NCBI GenBank assembly: GCA_903851045.1 | Contig: CAINNF010000018.1 | Span: forward strand, 3,925 to 67,924 | Source of the DNA: Candidatus Adlerbacteria bacterium | GTDB lineage: Bacteria > Patescibacteriota > Minisyncoccia > Phycocordibacterales > SBAW01 | Direction: 5' to 3' | Length of the DNA stretch: 64,000 nt | Shown here: in pieces, positions 11,630 to 53,865 of the stretch | Numbering within the stretch: position 1 is the stretch's first letter | Layout of the letters: each line of letters begins with the position of its first letter | Made by a program: the position numbers and the translations under genes | Notes under the pieces: model-generated | The model's database searches: none | The model's input: only the letters and a program-made list of their open reading frames with translations | What the model was told of the DNA's origin: nothing

Positions 11630-11917
11630 ATGTCCGTCTGTGACAAGTGCGGCCGAGAGGTCCACCCCGTAAACGATGCAACCGTCGTGGAGGCGTACGC
11701 GTTTCCAGGCCACGTGATGATGCTCGCGCTGTCGAAACCTCGGCACTTCCTGCCACTCGTCGAAGATGGGAAGCGGGTGTGCGAGGGTTCGCCCAGTCGC
11801 GCGCAGTACATCGAGGGTCAGCCTCGCGACACGCGCGGCTTCCCCTATAACCCTAAGCTGGAGACGAAGTTTCGCGAAGCTTACGCTCGGGTACTCGCAA
11901 AATATTCAGCACAATAA
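11630..11917 (+). CDS. hypothetical zinc-ribbon protein
   Basis: Start at MSVCDKCGREV; CxxC pair. Confidence 0.3.
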   Translation: MSVCDKCGREVHPVNDATVVEAYAFPGHVMMLALSKPRHFLPLVEDGKRVCEGSPSRAQYIEGQPRDTRGFPYNPKLETKFREAYARVLAKYSAQ

Positions 11918-12085
11918 ACGAAGTACAGTAGAACACGCACCAACCGTCATGGATACAAGCTAGGGATTTAATTCCCACTTGTGCCATGACGGTCTGTTTT
12001 TTGTATGTAATACCGTTTAGATATCGAGCAAAAGGACGGATTGGTTACTTGTGACGATGGGGACGAGAGGGTACAATCCCCTCAT

Positions 12086-20004: not shown

Positions 20005-20584
20005 TCGAGTCTGAGGTCCGCGTTCACCTCGCTAAGCTCACCTTCGACCATAGACGCATATTGACTGCCGGGCACCATCACACGATGGTGCCCTTTCTTG
20101 TGTTGATAAGCGGCACAGGCTACTCCCGTGTGGGGAAGCCCGGTCACGCTGCTAGCTGTCGCGCTTCCTTTGTCGTCTGTGTACGGACAGTCTCAGGAGC
20201 ATACAAGTTCCCATCATGAGCCAACATCATGAGAAGCGTTTGAACGTGAAGATATTTAGTCAGTTGTTCGGGAGTGAGCGGCGCCTTCTCCGAAGAAGCG
20301 GGGCGTGTTGACGCCTGAGTTCTCGAACGAATCCCAAATCGTTCTATATTCATATCGTGTAATTATACAAGAATTAGCACAGTCGAAAACCGTCAATCTC
20401 CACCCACGGCAGTCACACACACGTATGGCAATAGTTCAACCCTTCGCGGGTCACAAACATTCTTTTTGCGGAGAGGGTCGGTCTAGAACCAACCCGCTCC
20501 AAGCAGTATAAGGCTTTTTGAGCGACTTTTCCATGCGCCAAAATTAGGGGGAACGGTCGGGGTCTGAGAAATCACGCGTTACAA

Positions 20585-20809
20585 ATGTTACAACTTTTTA
20601 CGTACGTTTTTCGATATAATAAAGGCATGTTGAGTAAGAAGGCCAAAGACGATTTCAAGAAGATCATCAAGAAAGATTACGGGGCCGATCTGACAGACGA
20701 TCAGGCCGAAGAGCTTGGTGTCAGTCTCCTCCGCCTCACCCGGGTCGGCCTTTCAGCTCTAGCAAGAAGCCATGACAAAAAAGAAAAAGATAAAAAGAAA
20801 GCTGACTGA
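20585..20809 (+). CDS. hypothetical small basic protein
   Basis: ORF only; Lys-rich C-terminus. Confidence 0.3.
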   Translation: MLQLFTYVFRYNKGMLSKKAKDDFKKIIKKDYGADLTDDQAEELGVSLLRLTRVGLSALARSHDKKEKDKKKAD

Positions 20810-21224
20810 GGTAGAGGAAAAACAAGTCGACTATTTCGTTGATCGACTGGCCAACATTTTACTTATGCAAGTTGAGCAAGAAGCCCTCGAGAAGGCAGAA
20901 AAATCGAAACCCAAAAAGAAAACTGTGGATAAGTGAAAACCCTTATTACAAGCCACGATTTTAACTTTTTGTTGTTAACTCTTGTCAGGGCTTGAGAGGA
21001 AATGACAGGAAGTGACTTTGCAATGCATTTTTAGCGTTGCTACGATTAGGGCACGCAGGAATCTCACGGGGCATCCCCACGGAGAGGGTTCTGCAACAAA
21101 CAAATAAAGGACCCATCCAAGGGACCTAGAGCAACAACGTAACGTCTCGATACGCATCCCGTATCAAGGCGCTGCAAGGTTTTGCCTGGGTCCCTTTTGT
21201 ATTAATAGTTAGCAATTAATAACC

Positions 21225-22562
21225 ATGACCAAAAACAATCTCAAGATTGAGTACGTCCCTATCGACTCACTCCATCACGTGGAATACAACCCACGTATTA
21301 TCAACGACAGTACTAAAGCAGCCGTGCGGAAAAGCATCGAGATTCACGGGATGCAAGATCCGCTCATCGTAAACAATGCCCCCGAACGCATGGGCGGTAT
21401 CATCGGCGGCAACCTCCGCTATGAAGTGCTCAAGGACCTCGGATATACCGAGGTGCCAGTAGTCTTCGTTACCATCCCAGACATAGAGCGCGAAAAAGAT
21501 CTGTGTCTCAGGTTAAACCATGCAGTCGGAGAATGGAGCACTGATCTCCTCGCTGACTTCAGTGAAGCATTCCTCACAGATATTGGATTCTCTAGCGAGG
21601 AGATCGACAACATCTTCCCTGATGAAGATAATCCGACCCCGTTTGATCTCAAGAAGGAGTTGGAGAAACTCAACATCTCGAACATCTCTGTTAAAAAGGG
21701 TGACGTGTATGACCTCGATGGCTCCCGACTCATGTGTGGCGACTCAACCGTTGAGTCGGATATGCTCACACTCTTCGGTGAGTACCGAGCAGACATGTGC
21801 ATGACTGATCCTCCGTACATCCTCGACTATCTCCATGGGAAGAAACGTAACGGTAAAGCCACCGAAGGGTTCGGCCTCAGGCGTGACCGCAAATATCTCG
21901 AGACTGACGAATTGCCAGATAACTTCACCGACCTATGGATGGCGAATGTCGCAAAGATTCAGAAACCTGACTTTTCGATCATTGTGTACGAGAACCCCAA
22001 GAACCTGCGCACCATCTGGAACGCGCTTGAGGTGCACTGGAAGTATCGCAATACAATCGTTTGGACTATTCCGAACCGCGTGCAAAACTTCTCCGCTAAA
22101 TATAAGTTCTTCAACAAGCACGACATCGCGCTCGTGGGAACCTCGGGAGAGATTGCACTGCACACTGAGCCTGAAGATGAACCACTCTTCCAAAATGAGT
22201 ACGAGTCAGCGCTGTTTGCCACTGCGGGTAAGCCCCACTGGGAGTCGTATGGTAAAGACAAGAAGTACTGCCCAACTGACGTAATTGATCATATCGCTGC
22301 CGATGAGAAATCGTCGGGCCAAGGCATTATCTTCGGTACAAAACCCCTCCCGATACTCATTCCGTACATCAAGGTACTGACGAAGCGTGGAGATATTGTT
22401 GTTGAACCATTCGGCGGGAGTGGGTCGACTCTCATTGCCGCAAATACCATCGGACGTCGCTGCTTCCTCATGGAGAAAGTCCCGACCTATGCCGAGGTCA
22501 TCCTCAACCGCTGGGAAAAGTTCTCAGGCAAGAAGCGGGTGAAGATTCATGCACAAGCGTGA
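21225..22562 (+). CDS. ParB-like nuclease domain fused to N6-adenine/N4-cytosine DNA methyltransferase
   Basis: N-terminal ParB motif (EYNPRIIND..LIVNN..GNLRYEVLKDLGYTEVPVVFV); MTase motif IV DPPY (MCMTDPPYILDY) and motif I EPFGGSGST. Confidence 0.8.
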   Translation: MTKNNLKIEYVPIDSLHHVEYNPRIINDSTKAAVRKSIEIHGMQDPLIVNNAPERMGGIIGGNLRYEVLKDLGYTEVPVVFVTIPDIEREKDLCLRLNHAVGEWSTDLLADFSEAFLTDIGFSSEEIDNIFPDEDNPTPFDLKKELEKLNISNISVKKGDVYDLDGSRLMCGDSTVESDMLTLFGEYRADMCMTDPPYILDYLHGKKRNGKATEGFGLRRDRKYLETDELPDNFTDLWMANVAKIQKPDFSIIVYENPKNLRTIWNALEVHWKYRNTIVWTIPNRVQNFSAKYKFFNKHDIALVGTSGEIALHTEPEDEPLFQNEYESALFATAGKPHWESYGKDKKYCPTDVIDHIAADEKSSGQGIIFGTKPLPILIPYIKVLTKRGDIVVEPFGGSGSTLIAANTIGRRCFLMEKVPTYAEVILNRWEKFSGKKRVKIHAQA

Positions 22563-23869: not shown

Positions 23870-24251
23870 AAATTCTACTAGGATTTATACGGCAGAGCCC
23901 GATGAGGTAATCAAAAGGCTCCCAGCCATTGCGATAGCGCCTTTCGGCAACTACCCATACCCGTTTCCAGATATGACCTAGTAGAGTGACTCTGACTGGG
24001 AGTCCTTTGATCTCTACTAGGTTTTGCAACCATATCCTGAGAATTTGACTTCTTAGGGGTTAGGTCGGCTTGTATTCAATTGTTTGTACCAAGGGGTACA
24101 AGAACAATGATAACATTTTGAGTTATCACTTGGCCACCTTAGCTTAGCTTTGGAGGCTTGCGAAGGAGGTTACCAACAGAGATATGCGCCATCTCTGGCC
24201 TCAATTTGAGCTCACTAATCTATGCGAATGTTTTACTCCCACGAGTGAGTA

Positions 24252-41887: not shown

Positions 41888-42220
41888 ATGACCGAAAAAC
41901 AAGGCTTACCTCTGATCACGCCGACCGGTGACTTCATCATCTGTACAGGATGCAGGATCGAGAAACATCACTTGCCTGGTGGGTATGAGTGCGGCGGCCA
42001 GCAAGTGCTGCTCGACCGCATTGGTGGCGAGCCGTACGTGGTTGAAAATTACTCCTGGACGACCTGGACGACTAACCCACCAGACCCATCGGTCAGATTT
42101 GCCCACATGCGTGATGCGATCGTGGCCGAACTCGTGAAGGCGGCAACGACCGAGAAACCCGGGGTCATCGACCTTCGTCTACTGCAGATCTTTCAGAAGA
42201 AACTTCGTACTGCAGCCTGA
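41888..42220 (+). CDS. array ORF B, hypothetical Cys/His-containing protein (111 aa)
   Basis: Start at MTEKQG after GGGGGAGA RBS; CTGCRIEKHH...ECGG; C-terminal DLRLLQIF motif shared with ORF C. Confidence 0.4.
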   Translation: MTEKQGLPLITPTGDFIICTGCRIEKHHLPGGYECGGQQVLLDRIGGEPYVVENYSWTTWTTNPPDPSVRFAHMRDAIVAELVKAATTEKPGVIDLRLLQIFQKKLRTAA

Positions 42221-42236
42221 CACGTTAGCCCCTTTT

Positions 42237-42298
42237 CCCGCCAAAGACCCCAAAGGTCCCCGGCGGGATTTCTTTTTGTACAAGAGTTACCCTTATCC
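42237..42298 (+). repeat. array junction J3: hairpin + ATTTCTTTTTG + TGTACAAGAGTTACCCTTATCC
   Basis: Junction repeat family (degenerate palindrome). Confidence 0.55.
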
Positions 42299-42383
42299 AG
42301 TCACGTCTTATTCTAGTTTTTTGCAAAAAACTAGAATATATCAACACTGTTTTAGTGGCCAAAAAGTCTTTCGGCGAGATTTT

Positions 42384-42406
42384 TTGTACAAGGTTTATCC
42401 TTGTAT
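42384..42406 (+). promoter_or_regulatory. 23-bp palindrome TGTACAAGGTTTATCCTTGTATA (operator-like), J4
   Basis: 9-bp arms, 5-bp spacer, 8/9 arm symmetry; no ORF follows for ~370 nt. Confidence 0.5.
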
Positions 42407-42649
42407 AGAGCAATTATTGAGAGACTAACCCAAGCTCGCTCCGATTCCCTAAAGGAAAAGCCACCCACACGCAGTCGGTGTTGGGTGGCATATAAGTGGT
42501 TCGAGCAGTCTCGAGCAGGCAGCGTCCTCGTCGTGGCTGGGACACCGCTTTTCTCACACAACTGGATGGTGTTTCATTGACGACTCCCGTCCGACCTCAG
42601 TCAAACGTTCACAGTCTCCCATCTACACTGTGCTCGTGCATAATAGCTC

Positions 42650-48500: not shown

Positions 48501-48812
48501 TTATTGCTGCGGTAGTGTCGTCTGGTCTTGACCAGGTACCCCAGTGTACGTGGTCGTGGTCGCAACTTCAAGCGAATTGTTGTTTTGCTGTACATCGGTC
48601 CCCATACCGTTGATGGCGTTCGCGAGCTGCAACTCGTTGGACGTCTTATTAAGACTGTTCGCTATATCCGTCTGATGGTTCGCGAGACGAACCCCCAGCG
48701 TCGCTATCCACCCAACGAAAACGAGCGAAGTGACGACCGTCGCAACCTGTGCCGCGTGCTGGCGACGTTCATGCGTGGACTTGGTCTGCATGTGTTCTAG
48801 GTATCGTTTCAT
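48501..48812 (-). CDS. small membrane protein
   Basis: One TM (VATVVTSLVFVGWIATL). Confidence 0.35.
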   Translation of the reverse strand: MKRYLEHMQTKSTHERRQHAAQVATVVTSLVFVGWIATLGVRLANHQTDIANSLNKTSNELQLANAINGMGTDVQQNNNSLEVATTTTYTGVPGQDQTTLPQQ

Positions 48813-48867: not shown

Positions 48868-49485
48868 CTATGACGCTATCACGATGATCTCGCCCTCCTT
48901 ACCTTCAAGCTCCTTCTTTTTGGTCGTCAGTTTGTCGACCGGCTTTACCCCCTCGGCGCCCGCCTCTTTCAAGAAGGCTTTGAGCGATGCGTCGTCATAG
49001 TGCATCGGGACGATCGCTTTGGGCTCCAGTTGGACGGCAAGCTTGTATGCCTCGGCGTGGTTCAATACCCCGTTGGCACCCACGGGTACGAAAAGAATGT
49101 CGATATCGTCGAGTTCGGCCTTCGCAGCCGTCGGAAGGGTGGTCGAACCGACCGCCCCCAAGAAACAAAGGTTCGTCCCCTCCAAAAGCACACTATATAT
49201 AGTGTTGAGGTGCTCGCCACCGAATTGCGACTGGGAACCGAAGCCGCGAACCGCTATCCCCTTCACTTCATATTCGCCCGGGCCACTGATAACGAACGGC
49301 TCGCGCTCGCCATAGCTATTGTTCTCTATGCCATTGAAATCTTGATGATCTTGGGATACGAGCACGATGTCGGAGCCGAACTTCACGCTTTTTAATGCGG
49401 AGTCCTTAGATGGCGGATTAAAGGCCAGTGTAAGCTCGCCTTGAGTTATCTTAAAGCATTGCCCACCGAAATAGCTGATTACCAT
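48868..49485 (-). CDS. MBL-fold metal-dependent hydrolase (UPF0173-like)
   Basis: IVLVSQDHQDF..., ...PMHYDD pattern of small metallo-beta-lactamase-fold hydrolases. Confidence 0.65.
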   Translation of the reverse strand: MVISYFGGQCFKITQGELTLAFNPPSKDSALKSVKFGSDIVLVSQDHQDFNGIENNSYGEREPFVISGPGEYEVKGIAVRGFGSQSQFGGEHLNTIYSVLLEGTNLCFLGAVGSTTLPTAAKAELDDIDILFVPVGANGVLNHAEAYKLAVQLEPKAIVPMHYDDASLKAFLKEAGAEGVKPVDKLTTKKKELEGKEGEIIVIAS

Positions 49486-49803
49486 GGGTTATATTTTAGC
49501 ACATGCTAACCTCATTGCCCACCATTGACACGACCACGGCCTATACCGTATCGTCTAGACGGATGCTCCTGATCTCCTCTTTTTTGGTGGCATCTGCTGT
49601 GGCCGTCCGGTCCCAGTAACGAAGAAGGAACGATTCGCCATGCGAAAAACCTTCGTACCCACACCGATCCTGCGCACCGCCAGTCTTGGTGCGGGTACCG
49701 GGCGACCGCTGGATATCGAAAAACACGTACATCGAACCAGTATCGGCTAATACTGGCTAGAGGCCTGACGGCCTCCATGCGCCACCCACGAGTGGCGTAA
49801 AAC

Positions 49804-49843
49804 GCAGCCGAGCTCTTTGGAGCTCGGCTGCACTTCGTTTTTA
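49804..49843 (+). terminator. intrinsic terminator GCAGCCGAGCTCTTTGGAGCTCGGCTGC + T-tract
   Basis: 12-bp perfect stem followed by CGTTTTT. Confidence 0.55.
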
Positions 49844-50296
49844 TCAACACCTCGTTATAGACCAATACTTGCACGAAAAAAACGTGGGTGTACATTTAAA
49901 AAGGCCGTTCTCTGAACTGAATAGTCTTATGGGTTCGGCGCTTAACGTCGCATTGGCTTGCCCCTCCTTCCACACACGGACGGTGACCAAGATGAAACGA
50001 CGAAGATCGCTTAACACTACCGTGTGCGCTCTGCGCACGCATGTCAACGGGCAGAAGCACAACACCCGTCGGAGTGCCCCCTGCAACTCCCTTGTGGAGG
50101 AGCGCGGCATCTGACGGACCGAGATGATTTCGCTTCTAGACAATGAAGCGTGTACGTGCTAGCCGGCCCACCTGCGGAACTTCGTTTCTTCAATCCCCCG
50201 CAGGTGGGACTCTCTCACTATTCGATCCGTTCTTTCTACACCCACTTGGCTTCCTGGTCGCTCTGCAATCAATCTTCCTCACCACCTACCCCACAC

Positions 50297-50328
50297 GCCC
50301 CTGGCGTTGTCCGGGGTTTGTTTTTTTG
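50297..50328 (+). terminator. intrinsic terminator CCCCTGGCGTTGTCCGGGG + T7
   Basis: GC stem then GTTTGTTTTTTTG. Confidence 0.5.
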
Positions 50329-51831
50329 TATACAACCCTGAAATATGCTTTAGCATCCCAAACGCTGGGGTGCGAACCATTTTTAGACAGGACACCGTAT
50401 ACAAAAAGAGCCATATAGTGTCGTGTGGTTCATAGAGCGCAGCGGCCTTCGCTGCCAAGCGCAACGCACAAAGAGGTCTTTTGATGTCGACTGCTGATAC
50501 CGATACCAACACCGAGTCTGCGGACGAAGGAGGTGGTCGTACTGTGACCGAGTCGAACCAAGGAAGTTCGACACCGTTCGTCGAGCAAGAGTGGCGAGGA
50601 TCTGTTAGTCTGGGTACCACTCAAAACAAGCAACTCTAAACGGGAGGCTCCAGTGGTTGAGATCGATTGGGCACAGTTCGAAGCCCGCATGGTTGAACTG
50701 TTTCGCAGGTATGAACTGTTCATACTTCGCACCACGTAAGACCCTGACTACCCCGAGGAGTGAAAACTCCTCGGGCAACCACCTCATCTAGACATTTGCA
50801 GTTCGTTCGGTACCTTGCTCGATATTCACCCCGCCTGCTTCGCGCACGTGTCGGGGTTTTCTTTTTTCTTGTATAAAATAGTCAGAATAAGCCTTATTTA
50901 ACAACATATTTTACATGTACCCATAATATCGTGCAAAATTACTTGACAGAATTTTAATACCGTGTATACTACTCATTGTCGATTCCAAGTTTCGGGATCG
51001 GGCATACCCGGCATCCGTGCCGGTGGAAGAACATCAACAAAGGAAAGGTGCGTGCAATGCACGATCCCCCGCAGAATCTCGGTCGCGCGAGCGACCGTTA
51101 TGGTGTCAAAAACATGCATTTCGGCCTCAGTCATCTCGTCGCCATCGGCCTGGTCGCCCTGACCCGCTGATTCGGCGCCGGCGCCTCGGGGTAGGCGCTT
51201 CGTCCGGGTGAATCCCGGAAGCGAAGCGGCCTACCGCGGGCCTGCTCCAGGCCTAGTGCCTGCTCTGGGTCGTTTCGGCGTCTGGCCGAGAACCCACAGC
51301 TGAGGGCCTAGCTTGGAGCCGTGCAGGTAGGGTGGAGTCACCTCGGTGTAGCTCAACCGAGCGTTGACTGTGAAGCCTTACTTGCCTGAGCTTGCCTGAT
51401 CGACCCGGCTCGCCCCCATCCCGCGCGCAGTGCGCGGGTACGCAACGGCGGGACCGGGCCGATTCCCCCGTCACTCCAGAAGGAGAGGACAGGCCATGCG
51501 CAACCGGCAGCCGGAGCTGCCCGAGCCGGACACCCCGGCCTAAGGGCTTGACAGCCCCTATGTAGCACGGAGAGAGGTTCGAAACCCCAGCAGGTCCCCG
51601 ATATTTTTCTTCCTTTTATAAGGAGGAAAAAGTCGGGGGCCTTTTTCATTTCATGAAAAGGTTGTTTTTATATGAAAACTACGGTATAATCTGTAGTAAT
51701 TGCCTTTATCAGCAATGGTTCGTCGTCGCATAAGGCTATGGCGAACGAAAGCGCGTGGGAGTAATCTCCATATTCACAAAGGTCTGACCTTTGCAGTGTG
51801 GAACCCCTACCGTACAAGTACATAATTATAT

Positions 51832-52947
51832 ATGCCAGTAGAAACAGCAGAAAAGGTGCCAGCTTTAGCCTTGGGCGTATCGGTCATGACCGGTTTGTTC
51901 GAACAGGCACAAACACCCCCGAAAGAGGGTGATATTGTCGAGGGCCACGTGCTTGCGCTCGACCGTGCACGTTTATATATCGATCTTCCTCCGTTCGGTA
52001 CGGGTGTTATTTTTGGTCGTGAGTACATGAACGCGCGCGAGGTCATCAAGCGCGTGAACGTCGGCGACCTCGTCGCGGCAAAGGTCATCTCGACCACCGC
52101 CAAGGACGGCTATATCGAGCTTTCGCTCAAAGAGGCTCGCCAGGCTATCGTCTGGGCAGAGGCTGAAGAGGCGGTCAAGGGCAAGAAGCCGTTCGAACTC
52201 ACCGTCAAAGAGGCGAACAAGGGCGGACTTATCCTCGACTGGCAGGGCCTCATGGGCTTCCTCCCCGCATCCCAACTCAAACCCGAGCACTATCCTCGCG
52301 TCTCGGACGGCGACAAGGATCGTATCCTCGACGAATTGCGCAAGCTCGTTGGCACCAAGCTTACCGTCACCGTCATTTCGGCAACACCGAAGGAAGGCAA
52401 ACTTATCTTCTCTGAAAAAGGTCAGGACGATACCGGCAAGCGCGAGATCGTCGAACACTACCAGGTCGGCGACACGCTCGAGGGCGAAGTGACTGGCATG
52501 GTCGACTTCGGCGTCTTCGTCAAGATCGAGGACGGGCTTGAAGGTCTCGTCCATATCTCGGAGATCGACTGGGGACTCGTGGATGATCCTCGCCACTTCT
52601 TTAAGGTCGGCGACAAGGTAAAGGTCAAGGTCATCGACATCAAGGATGGCAAGATCTCGCTGTCGGTCAAGGCGCTTAAGGAGAACCCGTGGCAGTCCGC
52701 AGGAGATAAGTACAAGAAGGGCGATCGTGTCGAGGGTATCGTCATCAAGTTCAACAAGCACGGCGCACTCGCGTCGATCGAAGAGGGCATCGCGGGTCTC
52801 GTCCACATCTCCGAGTTCGGCTCGGAGGAGAAGCTGCGCCAGTCGCTCGAGCTCGGCAAGCGCTACCCGTTCACCATCTCGCTCTTCGACCCCAAGGAAA
52901 TGCGTATGGCGCTCACCTTTGGCACTCCGGTTGAAAAGAAGGTGTAG
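51832..52947 (+). CDS. rpsA: 30S ribosomal protein S1 (short, 4 S1 domains)
   Basis: Repeated S1-domain signatures (GDIVEGHV..., GDTLEGEVTGMVDFGVFVKI, GDRVEGIVIKFNKHGALASI). Confidence 0.85.
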   Translation: MPVETAEKVPALALGVSVMTGLFEQAQTPPKEGDIVEGHVLALDRARLYIDLPPFGTGVIFGREYMNAREVIKRVNVGDLVAAKVISTTAKDGYIELSLKEARQAIVWAEAEEAVKGKKPFELTVKEANKGGLILDWQGLMGFLPASQLKPEHYPRVSDGDKDRILDELRKLVGTKLTVTVISATPKEGKLIFSEKGQDDTGKREIVEHYQVGDTLEGEVTGMVDFGVFVKIEDGLEGLVHISEIDWGLVDDPRHFFKVGDKVKVKVIDIKDGKISLSVKALKENPWQSAGDKYKKGDRVEGIVIKFNKHGALASIEEGIAGLVHISEFGSEEKLRQSLELGKRYPFTISLFDPKEMRMALTFGTPVEKKV

Positions 52948-52956
52948 CCGTCGTTA

Positions 52957-53061
52957 CAGAACACAAGAAAAACACTTTGCAAATGGTCTGGAAGCCTACA
53001 GCGTCGCTCTGGACGCTGAGGCGGCCCGAGGACCTTTGCAAAGTGTTTTTCTTGTGTTCTG
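52957..53061. repeat. palindromic mini-element copy 1: 27-bp inverted arms (CAGAACACAAGAAAAACACTTTGCAAA/…) around conserved 51-nt core ATGGTCTGGAAGCCTACAGCGTCGCTCTGGACGCTGAGGCGGCCCGAGGACC
   Basis: Perfect long inverted repeat; core shared with 53704..53799; lies between convergent rpsA and pth. Confidence 0.65.
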
Positions 53062-53065
53062 TTCT

Positions 53066-53662
53066 CTATTGTTTCGAATGAATGACCATCGTCGCATGGT
53101 CGCGGCTTTCGTTCACTAACAGTTCGAGCGCTTCGGCGACCAGCTTCTTTACCTTTTTTAGTTTTTCTCCTTCGGTAGGTTTGAACGTACCGAGCACGAA
53201 GTCGACGACCTTCTCCGACTCTGGCTTTTTCGTCTTACCTGACGGTGTCGTGGGCGAGATGCCGATGCGGATACGAACGAAATCCTTCGTCTTGAGCGCC
53301 TTTTGAATAGAGTCGACGCCTCGGTGACCGCCCGCGGAGCTGCCGAACGACAACTTCACCCGCCCAAGAGGCATATCGAGCTCATCGTGGAGCACGACGA
53401 GATTCTCGGCGGCTTTTTTCGACTTCACGAGCGCGGTCAGCGCCTTGCCGGAATTGTTCATATAGGTGTCCGGTAGTACGAGTGCCACCTTTTTACCGAA
53501 CAGTTCTGCTTTCGCGGTCAGTGCATGCAGCTTCGCATCCTCTTTCCACTTTGCTACCCCTTCTTTCTCCGCAATCTCCAATAAGAAGTCGCGTCCGATG
53601 TTATGACGTGTGCCGTCATACTCGCCACCTGGGTTCCCAAGCCCTACGATCGTCCATTGCAT
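53066..53662 (-). CDS. pth: peptidyl-tRNA hydrolase
   Basis: MQWTIVGLGNPGGEYDGTRHNIGRDF...HDELD...GGHRGV motifs. Confidence 0.9.
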   Translation of the reverse strand: MQWTIVGLGNPGGEYDGTRHNIGRDFLLEIAEKEGVAKWKEDAKLHALTAKAELFGKKVALVLPDTYMNNSGKALTALVKSKKAAENLVVLHDELDMPLGRVKLSFGSSAGGHRGVDSIQKALKTKDFVRIRIGISPTTPSGKTKKPESEKVVDFVLGTFKPTEGEKLKKVKKLVAEALELLVNESRDHATMVIHSKQ

Positions 53663-53703
53663 GTCTTACAGCGTAGCATAAGAAGAAAAAATACAAAGTC
53701 TTT

Positions 53704-53799
53704 ACAAAAAAAATGAAAAACATTTTACAAATGGTCTGGAAGCCTACAGTGTCGCTCTGGACGCTGAGGCGGCCCGAGGACCTTTGTAAAATATTTTTC
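53704..53799. repeat. palindromic mini-element copy 2: arms ACAAAAAAAATGAAAAACATTTTACAAA/TTTGTAAAATATTTTTCATTTTTTTGT around the same core (one C>T)
   Basis: Arms differ from copy 1 but remain self-complementary (compensatory changes). Confidence 0.65.
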
Positions 53800-53865
53800 A
53801 TTTTTTTGTATATATATTTTTTGATAAAACTTGCGTTGTTCGAAAAGAAGAATACAATAACTTGC

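Follow-up and report, generated by a model that had tools for sequence, protein, structure and literature searches.

In the 64,000-nt stretch of DNA from Candidatus Adlerbacteria analyzed here (the window, in whose coordinates all positions are given), the largest gap free of gene-like open reading frames (ORFs) lies between a gene for an MBL-fold hydrolase (48868-49485, minus strand; Pfam Lactamase_B_3) and the divergent rpsA gene, encoding ribosomal protein S1 (51832-52947, plus strand). This hydrolase-rpsA gap covers 2346 nt (49486-51831), and gene orientation diverges at it. The relatives of its S1 protein assign the window to Candidatus Adlerbacteria, within the Patescibacteria. Mechanically listed ORFs of up to 127 aa are present on both of its strands, none of them with a Pfam match. 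When codon usage is scored as log-odds, with the long genes of the window as the training set, the flanking genes reach 0.3-0.7 per codon, and the gap stays at about 0, except around 50441-50560 and 51041-51160, the gene-like signal being confined to two small ORFs that are described below (orf51 and orf37).

A preliminary description of this DNA had pointed to strong structuring of the region, which is indeed beyond chance: against dinucleotide shuffles, the fold z-scores of its four units are -6.7, -3.0, -6.0, and -7.9, and in a scan of 200-nt windows (n = 320; mean z -0.7, sd 1.8), the gap holds 6 of the 23 most structured ones. No repeats were found in the gap, neither internal ones nor copies elsewhere in the window.

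Conservation of the gap in a close relative

A search with the hydrolase led to a relative (hereafter R) whose hydrolase is 92% identical and whose complete spacer, of 2121 nt, is present in contig L166. Contigs with an identical hydrolase are 100% identical to the window at the DNA level and hence uninformative. Between the window and R, synonymous sites differ by 47-67% (hydrolase, S1, pth, and a flanking 103-aa gene), so unconstrained DNA should hardly align. The gap aligns with R from end to end, with the exception of a 210-nt segment, and the identity is 70-94% over most of its length, being 71-78% at 49500-49699, 49-68% at 49700-50199, 85-94% at 50200-50599 (which exceeds that of the hydrolase gene), about 74% at 50600-50799, 86% at 51000-51099, 80% at 51500-51599, and 92% at 51700-51831. 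Near-neutral identities of 49-56% are found at 49900-50099 and 51100-51199. The segment that interrupts the alignment (51263-51473, plus strand) is GC-rich (∼66%) and structured, is present only in the window genome, as an insertion here or a deletion in R, and has no second copy in the window.

These near-neutral segments and the 210-nt indel are what would be expected if the gap were decaying DNA, in the form of remnants of pseudogenes or of neutral filler at a hotspot of intergenic variation, and the lack of homologous sequence in about 70 other species, together with gap lengths that range from 131 to 2346 nt, also fits that explanation. However, most of the gap evolves far slower than synonymous sites, the promoter hexamers, terminators, and small ORFs described below are specifically preserved, and no translated similarity was detected in 160 related loci. 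Decay is therefore regarded as improbable.

Beyond R, searches with blastn, tblastn, and nhmmer (the last with 50150-50800 as its only query) against 77 GTDB and 80 metagenome loci gave no homolog of the gap. The relatives with hydrolases of 81-85% identity (P0009, P0011, P0013, P0014, and P0016) are without the cluster, and the closest match in a scan of Joint Genome Institute metagenomes is 74% identical. A concatenated six-frame query against a collection of 5.8 billion proteins also returned nothing, a result that is unreliable, given that the same query missed self-hits found by single queries.

Promoters, terminators, and conserved hairpins

Four plus-strand sites in the gap resemble sigma-70-type promoters, with hexamers 16 to 18 nt apart that are kept in R to a greater extent than the spacer between them. 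The first (P1, 49525-49554; TTGACA, 18 nt, TATCGT) was called by a consensus promoter scanner and corresponds to L166 383-412, where both hexamers are fully conserved (6/6 each) and 11 of the 18 spacer positions match. The second (P2, 49869-49896; TTGCAC, 16 nt, TACATT) falls below the threshold of the scanner and was read from the sequence, its hexamers being identical in R and its spacer conserved at 9 of 16 positions. The third (P3, 50943-50970; TTGACA, 16 nt, TATACT) has 11 of 12 consensus matches, was called by the scanner, and lies at L166 1775-1802 in R, with identical hexamers and 8 of 16 spacer positions kept. The fourth is the putative rpsA promoter (P4; TTGTTT at 51662-51667, 17 nt, TATAAT at 51685-51690), whose -10 hexamer is one base off in R (TATAAC). 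On the minus strand, a candidate hydrolase promoter (49493-49521; TGGGCA, 17 nt, TGcTAAAAT) stands back to back with P1; it was called by the scanner and has identical hexamers in R (L166 379-351). For P1, P3, and the hydrolase promoter, the scanner calls are independent in both genomes.

Each of these plus-strand promoters other than P4 would be paired with an intrinsic terminator. T1 (49804-49845) was called by the terminator scanner in both genomes (at 49804-49831 in the window) and has two compensatory pairs and no broken ones. T2 (50288-50328) was also called in both genomes (50299-50316); its extended stem has one compensatory pair, and its T-run is identical in R. T3 (50829-50868) was read from the sequence, its loop being too long for the scanner, and at its position R carries a different hairpin with a T-run. 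T4 (51593-51652), read from the sequence as well, is a long hairpin followed by CCTTTTTCATTT, with two compensatory pairs. All four are on the plus strand and have the features of rho-independent terminators, namely a GC-rich hairpin followed by a T-run, with the pairing kept by compensatory change; compared with the known class, there is nothing unusual in them, save that the loop of T3 is long and that 6 nt separate the hairpin of T1 from its T-run. The preliminary description had listed three plus-strand terminators: its three sites agree with T1 to T3, and its count has to be raised by the overlooked fourth at 51593-51652.

Additional hairpins are conserved between these signals. Two follow one another upstream of T1 (49760-49775 and 49779-49798), both kept in R with a different sequence, two pairs of the former and three of the latter being changed on both sides. 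A hairpin at 50751-50775, near the end of the second unit, has an identical stem and a different loop in R. The third unit starts with hairpins at 50980-51000 and 51008-51023, with two compensatory pairs in a 5'-untranslated region (UTR) hairpin, and a long conserved hairpin at 51190-51235 has two compensatory pairs in its inner stem. Pairing is kept by both-side changes in T1, T2, T4, and the hairpins at 49760-49775, 49779-49798, 50980-51000, and 51190-51235. Over five two-sequence alignments, 5, 8, 7, 11, and 4 pairs are changed on both sides and no predicted pair is broken. Among the hairpins cited in the preliminary description, two are kept in R, and the third, CCAGTATCGGCTAATACTGG (49737-49756), is lost.

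Small ORFs preserved in R

Before R was known, the plus-strand ORFs led by a Shine-Dalgarno (SD) sequence had been selected as candidates; these encode 36, 51, 28, 37, and 15 aa, and a weak one of 40/61 aa starts at 49929. In R, none of the five main candidates is interrupted, and an SD-like purine run is retained ahead of each. They contain three indels, each a multiple of 3 nt in length, the diverged 3' end of orf37 being the only deviation, and their stops are at the same position, that of orf37 being two codons earlier. If the observed substitutions are placed randomly, the joint chance of such preservation is about 5e-5. In contrast, the other mechanical ORFs that were compared (the 61-aa one and seven more) have lost the start, gained stops, or shifted frame in R in eight of eight cases, three of them having gene calls in public assemblies. 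Thus, SD, start, frame, and stop are kept, with indels in multiples of three, in all five candidates and in none of the eight controls, which is the pattern that genuine small ORFs would leave. The lack of a Pfam match or gene-like codon usage in the mechanical ORFs, together with the breakage of these eight, also confirms the region as ORF-poor over 2.3 kb, as initially described.

The first of them, orf36 (49640-49750; MRKTFVPTPILRTASLGAGTGRPLDIEKHVHRTSIG), is preceded by the SD GAAGGAAC at 49624-49631. In R, it encodes 35 aa owing to one 3-nt in-frame deletion and has the same stop, with proportions of synonymous (pS) and nonsynonymous (pN) differences of 0.46 and 0.31; the chance of its start, frame, and stop surviving random substitutions is 0.07.

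The second, orf51 (50484-50639; SD AAGAGG at 50471-50476), encodes a peptide with an acidic N-terminus and a conserved C-terminus, ESNQGSSTPFVEQEWRGSVSL. It is open in R with a pS of 0.16 and scores +0.20 per codon in codon usage. An exhaustive profile search found two homologs, P0125 (186 aa, whose C-terminal 51 aa are 82% identical) and P0126 (52 aa, 67%), the latter being the homolog of a third lineage in which the C-terminal half is conserved. Over the three lineages, the C-terminal 30 residues are kept, and the acidic N-terminus is variable and has in-frame indels. A frameshifted long ORF, which the preliminary description had named as another way to explain the region, was not found: the only long homolog, P0125, is a read-through artefact, extending across T2 into the orf51 copy of R. 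Acidic ORFs in the loci L011 and L057 are also discarded as homologs of orf51, the resemblance being compositional only, as 87 of 500 shuffles score equally high.

The third, orf28 (50653-50739), has a GTG start and the SD GGGAGG at 50642-50647, and its product is predicted to form an amphipathic helix. In R, the start is ATG, length and stop are unchanged, and the hydrophobic positions are retained; the estimated numbers of synonymous (Sd) and nonsynonymous (Nd) differences are 9.5 and 13.5 (pS 0.49, pN 0.21, dN/dS 0.31).

The fourth, orf37 (51057-51170; SD AAAGGAAAGG at 51039-51048), has a hydrophobic C-terminus and the best codon score of the gap (+0.36 per codon). It has a gene call in public assemblies and corresponds to a 35-aa gene call in R, with the first 20 codons conserved (four synonymous changes) and a diverged C-terminal half (dN/dS 1.14), and it is a singleton in a collection of 15 billion proteins. 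The fifth, orf15 (51496-51543; MRNRQPELPEPDTPA; SD GAAGGAGAGG at 51479-51488), becomes 16 aa in R through a 3-nt in-frame insertion, with the same stop; its coding status is uncertain because it overlaps conserved hairpins. Taken over the five ORFs, the dN/dS values against R are 0.31 (orf28), 0.42, 0.57, 0.65, and 1.14 (orf37), each of them estimated from only 15 to 51 codons. The preliminary description had offered micro-proteins as one alternative for the region, an idea that gains support here: the ORFs of 51 and 37 aa that it listed are SD-preceded and open in R, as are those of 36, 28, and 15 aa, and the 37-aa ORF, which it placed at 51058-51171, needs only its coordinates corrected by one position.

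With regard to known systems, the small genes of E. coli and Bacillus that encode membrane or regulatory proteins below 50 aa appear comparable in organization, with an own promoter, an SD, an ORF of 15 to 51 codons, and an intrinsic terminator. Moreover, a narrow phylogenetic range and a tendency to be missed by gene callers are shared with known bacterial small-protein genes. They differ in that the gap ORFs have no sequence relation to described families, and most of them encode hydrophilic products, not single transmembrane helices. A type I toxin-antitoxin system was considered and rejected, since no minus-strand promoter listed by the scanners within the gap is common to the two genomes, except the hydrolase promoter at the left edge, and a hydrophobic tail is present in orf37 only, with about 14 residues, which is below the length of a membrane span.

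The putative leader of the second unit

Between P2 and orf51 lies a long segment (49903-50483, plus strand) that would be either the leader of the second unit or, up to T2, a small RNA (sRNA) of about 420 nt. Its 5' half is poorly conserved, and no ORF in it is conserved in R (orf61 and orf91 were compared). It contains hairpins at 50071-50090, 50131-50150, and 50167-50208 whose stems are invariant in R and whose loops vary, followed by a C/U-rich, G-poor stretch of about 85 nt (50209-50292; 70% pyrimidine) that leads into T2. A structured spacer of 155 nt (50329-50483) then links T2 to orf51. In both genomes, the stretch from T2 to orf51 is free of consensus promoters, and in their absence, T2 would either end an sRNA of about 420 nt or attenuate the transcription of orf51 and orf28. 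T2 is thus a candidate attenuator or sRNA terminator.

In RNAduplex calculations, the pairing of the C/U tract with the translation-initiation regions of 71 putative genes of the window (the mechanically listed ORFs and the five micro-ORFs) is no better than that of shuffled RNA. The arrangement is like that of terminated leader and attenuator RNAs and of riboswitch-derived sRNAs, with a long, conserved, structured leader, an intrinsic terminator before the ORFs, and no separate promoter for these; unlike them, the leader has no Rfam match, and the comparison relies on two sequences.

A structured leader upstream of rpsA

The last part of the gap (51662-51831, plus strand) comprises P4 and a structured 5' leader and is 92% identical to R. 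The ATG of rpsA at 51832 is preceded by an A/U-rich tract, and there is no SD adjacent to it. When the last 150 nt of the hydrolase-S1 spacers of other Adlerbacteria are aligned, a common promoter and leader emerge, with clear covariation. A covariance model (R1) was built from 12 sequences and consists of helix P1 (AAUAAAG/CUUUAUU), followed by helix P2, which encloses hairpin P3; an unpaired AGUAA junction is invariant. In 1.2 Mb, R1 matches 51 loci, all of them directly upstream of S1, the match in the window being 51733-51816, and 10 further metagenome loci with hydrolases at least 66% identical were also recovered. In the R1 alignment, 96.3% of the cells are paired, compared with 37-52% in slid controls, and both-side changes are seen in 15 of 16 pairs. 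Hence, a 5'-UTR structure that is conserved through covariation precedes rpsA.

This leader most likely serves autogenous translational control by S1. The S1-interacting leader of E. coli occurs only in Gammaproteobacteria, and in Cyanobacteria rpsA has another motif upstream (PMC3616713). The leader described here is like that of E. coli and Cyano-S1 in its position in the rpsA 5' UTR, in having helices split by conserved unpaired A/U-rich segments, and in lacking a canonical SD at the start, whereas its sequence and helix layout differ, and its range is limited to Patescibacteria at the level of Adlerbacteria. No Rfam family matched the leader at E values up to 10, a result that extends to the E. 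coli S1 leader and Cyano-S1 only insofar as these motifs are part of Rfam 15. By this comparison, the leader would probably have arisen independently of the known S1 leaders and be autoregulatory. With 61 examples and strong covariation, it represents a new RNA motif and a candidate for RNA family databases, and it suggests an independent origin of leader-based S1 autoregulation in Patescibacteria.

Housekeeping RNAs and mobile elements

The preliminary description had proposed that so much noncoding space would probably encode housekeeping RNAs (RNase P RNA, transfer-messenger RNA [tmRNA], signal recognition particle [SRP] RNA, and 6S RNA), a view for which the high structure speaks, along with short strings similar to the P4 element of RNase P that were seen by eye. 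It was not borne out. A cmscan search of the whole window with Rfam at gathering thresholds gives nothing in the gap, the gathering-level matches elsewhere in the window being eight tRNAs and a LOOT RNA, and in E-value mode, the gap has only chance-level matches (E 1-10, with scores far below the cut-offs). For RNase P RNA of types A and B, the covariance models match nothing, whether at gathering level or with E values up to 10; ARAGORN detects no tmRNA gene in 49000-52200, nor does Rfam; and neither SRP RNA nor 6S RNA has an Rfam match in the gap. One of the strings similar to RNase P, at 51403, sits in the 210-nt segment that R lacks. Also, Rfam finds no family in the spacers of 15 related loci. 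The gap sequence is, moreover, absent from about 70 other Adlerbacteria species that keep the same flanking genes, as essential RNAs would not be, and this explanation is hardly credible.

A lineage-specific distribution and the divergent gene orientation at the gap could also indicate the remnant of a mobile element, prophage, or defense island, or a replication origin. Nonetheless, no DNA match was found in phage or plasmid collections, and neither orf51 nor the conserved 25-mer matches viral contigs. There is no PADLOC hit, and flanking repeats, an integrase, and a tRNA are lacking. Regarding an origin, the gap has a single DnaA box with one mismatch, and the window as a whole has 9, against 10.6 expected, showing no enrichment. 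Any of these origins for the gap is very improbable.

A proposed cluster of micro-gene units

Considering the above, we hold with moderate confidence that three plus-strand micro-gene units, clustered and lineage-specific, occupy the gap, and that the rpsA promoter and leader come after them. A separate sigma-70-type promoter and a separate intrinsic terminator would belong to each unit. Unit A (∼49561-49845) would be an mRNA of about 285 nt that carries three hairpins at the 3' end and encodes a peptide of 36 aa. Unit B (∼49903-50868) would start with a leader of about 580 nt that includes T2 and continue with the SD-led ORFs of 51 and 28 aa, T2 being the end of an sRNA of about 420 nt or an attenuator whose read-through sets the expression of orf51 and orf28. 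Unit C (∼50977-51652) would encode a 37-aa peptide and possibly one of 15 aa, with a structured spacer of variable length between them. The rpsA leader (∼51698-51831), with its clade-wide three-helix fold, would mediate autogenous translational control by S1. From the sequence features and their conservation, we infer the transcription and translation of the units, the attenuation at T2, and the binding of S1.

Several points weigh against this interpretation. Synonymous changes are not clearly enriched in the five ORFs, and third codon positions do not stand out among the differences. The pS of orf51 (0.16) is far below neutral, so that constraint at the RNA level or recent recombination would be at least equal to coding. 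Conserved hairpins overlap orf51, orf15, and parts of orf37, and the gap products have no Pfam, NCBIfam, or PADLOC match. Furthermore, just two DNA sequences of the cluster exist; the compensatory counts represent single events and are based on structures predicted from the same two sequences. As for the rpsA leader, its alignment is model-fitted, which favors the structure, although the margin over the controls is large.

Some of these points are accounted for if all units are noncoding sRNAs or cis-regulatory RNAs, the small ORFs being incidental and the conservation reflecting RNA structure. Strong fold z-scores, hairpins conserved inside orf51, orf37, and orf15, the low pS of orf51 with no third-position bias, and the fact that the most conserved block of the gap (50200-50483) is in the unit B leader, which has no conserved ORF, are consistent with such an explanation. 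Against it, all five SD-led ORFs remain open in R and have no indels other than in-frame ones, and the eight others break; the GTG start of orf28 is replaced by ATG, with an estimated 9.5 synonymous differences in this ORF; and the third-lineage homolog of orf51 is conserved as a protein, with in-frame indels at its N-terminus. We consider an RNA-only nature of the units unlikely, yet it keeps some weight, and the cluster of micro-gene units described above is preferred.

The hydrolase-S1 spacer in other Adlerbacteria

Of 77 species-representative loci, about 64 retain the pairing of hydrolase and S1, with spacers of 131-2026 nt that share nothing with the window in blastn, tblastn, or nhmmer searches, except for about the last 100 nt before S1. 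Over the spacers of 65 species (131-2346 nt each, 56 kb in total), which have no sequence in common but the rpsA leader, a simple terminator scan gives 73 plus-strand and 20 minus-strand calls, compared with about 3 in shuffles. In many species, an SD-led ORF of about 60 to 70 codons starts about 160 nt from the hydrolase; the similarity among these ORFs is limited to small groups and is partly compositional, and no family of long ORFs is common to the spacers of other species. Based on the excess of terminators and on small ORFs with group-limited similarity, the spacer seems to be a hotspot of short units of fast turnover oriented like rpsA, the set in the window being the largest.

In three loci (L020, L037, and L071), an SD-led ORF of about 66 aa lies ∼160-390 nt from the hydrolase start, at a position equivalent to that of orf36, and carries the motif Q-x-M-(Q/L)-R-H-(G/S)-G-S; it may represent a family of small proteins that evolves fast in Adlerbacteria. 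The spacers of some other species, L047 (spacer positions 600-1244), L019 (75-548), and L053 (95-658), hold protein-like ORFs of 157-214 aa that are unrelated, at least two of them with a start that looks by eye like a signal peptide, which suggests different cargo in the same hotspot. Also, the region 50882-50972 of the window, an AT-rich stretch plus promoter P3, has matches of 28-34 nt and 76-86% identity (E 0.004-7) in L001, L171, L172, and L002. These lie 100-500 nt from the hydrolase in relatives at 85% and are too weak to rely on; they might mark the ancestral spacer that received units A and B.

A broader proposal, which we put forward only tentatively and hold to be rather doubtful, is that the spacer is a clade-wide hotspot in the streamlined genomes of the candidate phyla radiation (CPR), where unrelated, terminator-bounded mini-genes are gained, replaced, and lost in genus-level time. 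If true, the hotspot would be a nursery of de novo micro-proteins and sRNAs. Within such a hotspot, the unit B leader, with its C/U-rich tract and T2, could be an attenuator or an element like a riboswitch, of a new kind in either case, or else an sRNA with a link to S1, a protein that binds pyrimidine-rich single strands.

Other features of the window

Some observations concern other parts of the window. A 103-aa ORF between gyrA and the hydrolase gene (48501-48812, minus strand) lacks matches in Pfam and NCBIfam, shows conservation in R (dN/dS 0.20), and contains a hydrophobic segment; given this segment and its conservation, it likely encodes a small membrane protein. A direct repeat of 125 nt (52950-53074 and 53698-53822; 83% identical, 748 nt apart) brackets the gene for peptidyl-tRNA hydrolase, and both copies are present in R; it is perhaps an intergenic element, RNA or DNA, that occurs repeatedly. 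The LOOT RNA (RF03000) is located at 23933-24066 on the minus strand and scores 72.5 bits, compared with a gathering score of 46.4.

In a second long ORF-free gap (20220-21224; 1005 nt), a perfect TTATCCACA box is present at 20924, and the fold z-score at 21001-21200 (-9.3) is the most extreme in the window. This gap was considered as a dnaA-adjacent origin and rejected, the downstream gene (21225-22562) being a fusion of ParB-N and a DNA methylase and not DnaA. Finally, the intergenic regions 41940-42496 and 11756-12041 have fold z-scores of -7.3 and -7.4, which suggests that spacers with strong structure are frequent in this genome.

Implications

The genomes of the CPR are small and gene-dense, and their noncoding and micro-protein content is almost unannotated. 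The kinds of element described here are all known, their members being new. What appears as a hole of 2.3 kb in such a genome would be filled with ordinary, unannotated gene-like units, each made up of promoter, SD, micro-ORF, and terminator, that are under purifying selection and restricted to two or three close lineages. Moreover, the variable spacer between the hydrolase and S1 genes would provide a natural experiment on the emergence and turnover of small genes in reduced genomes.

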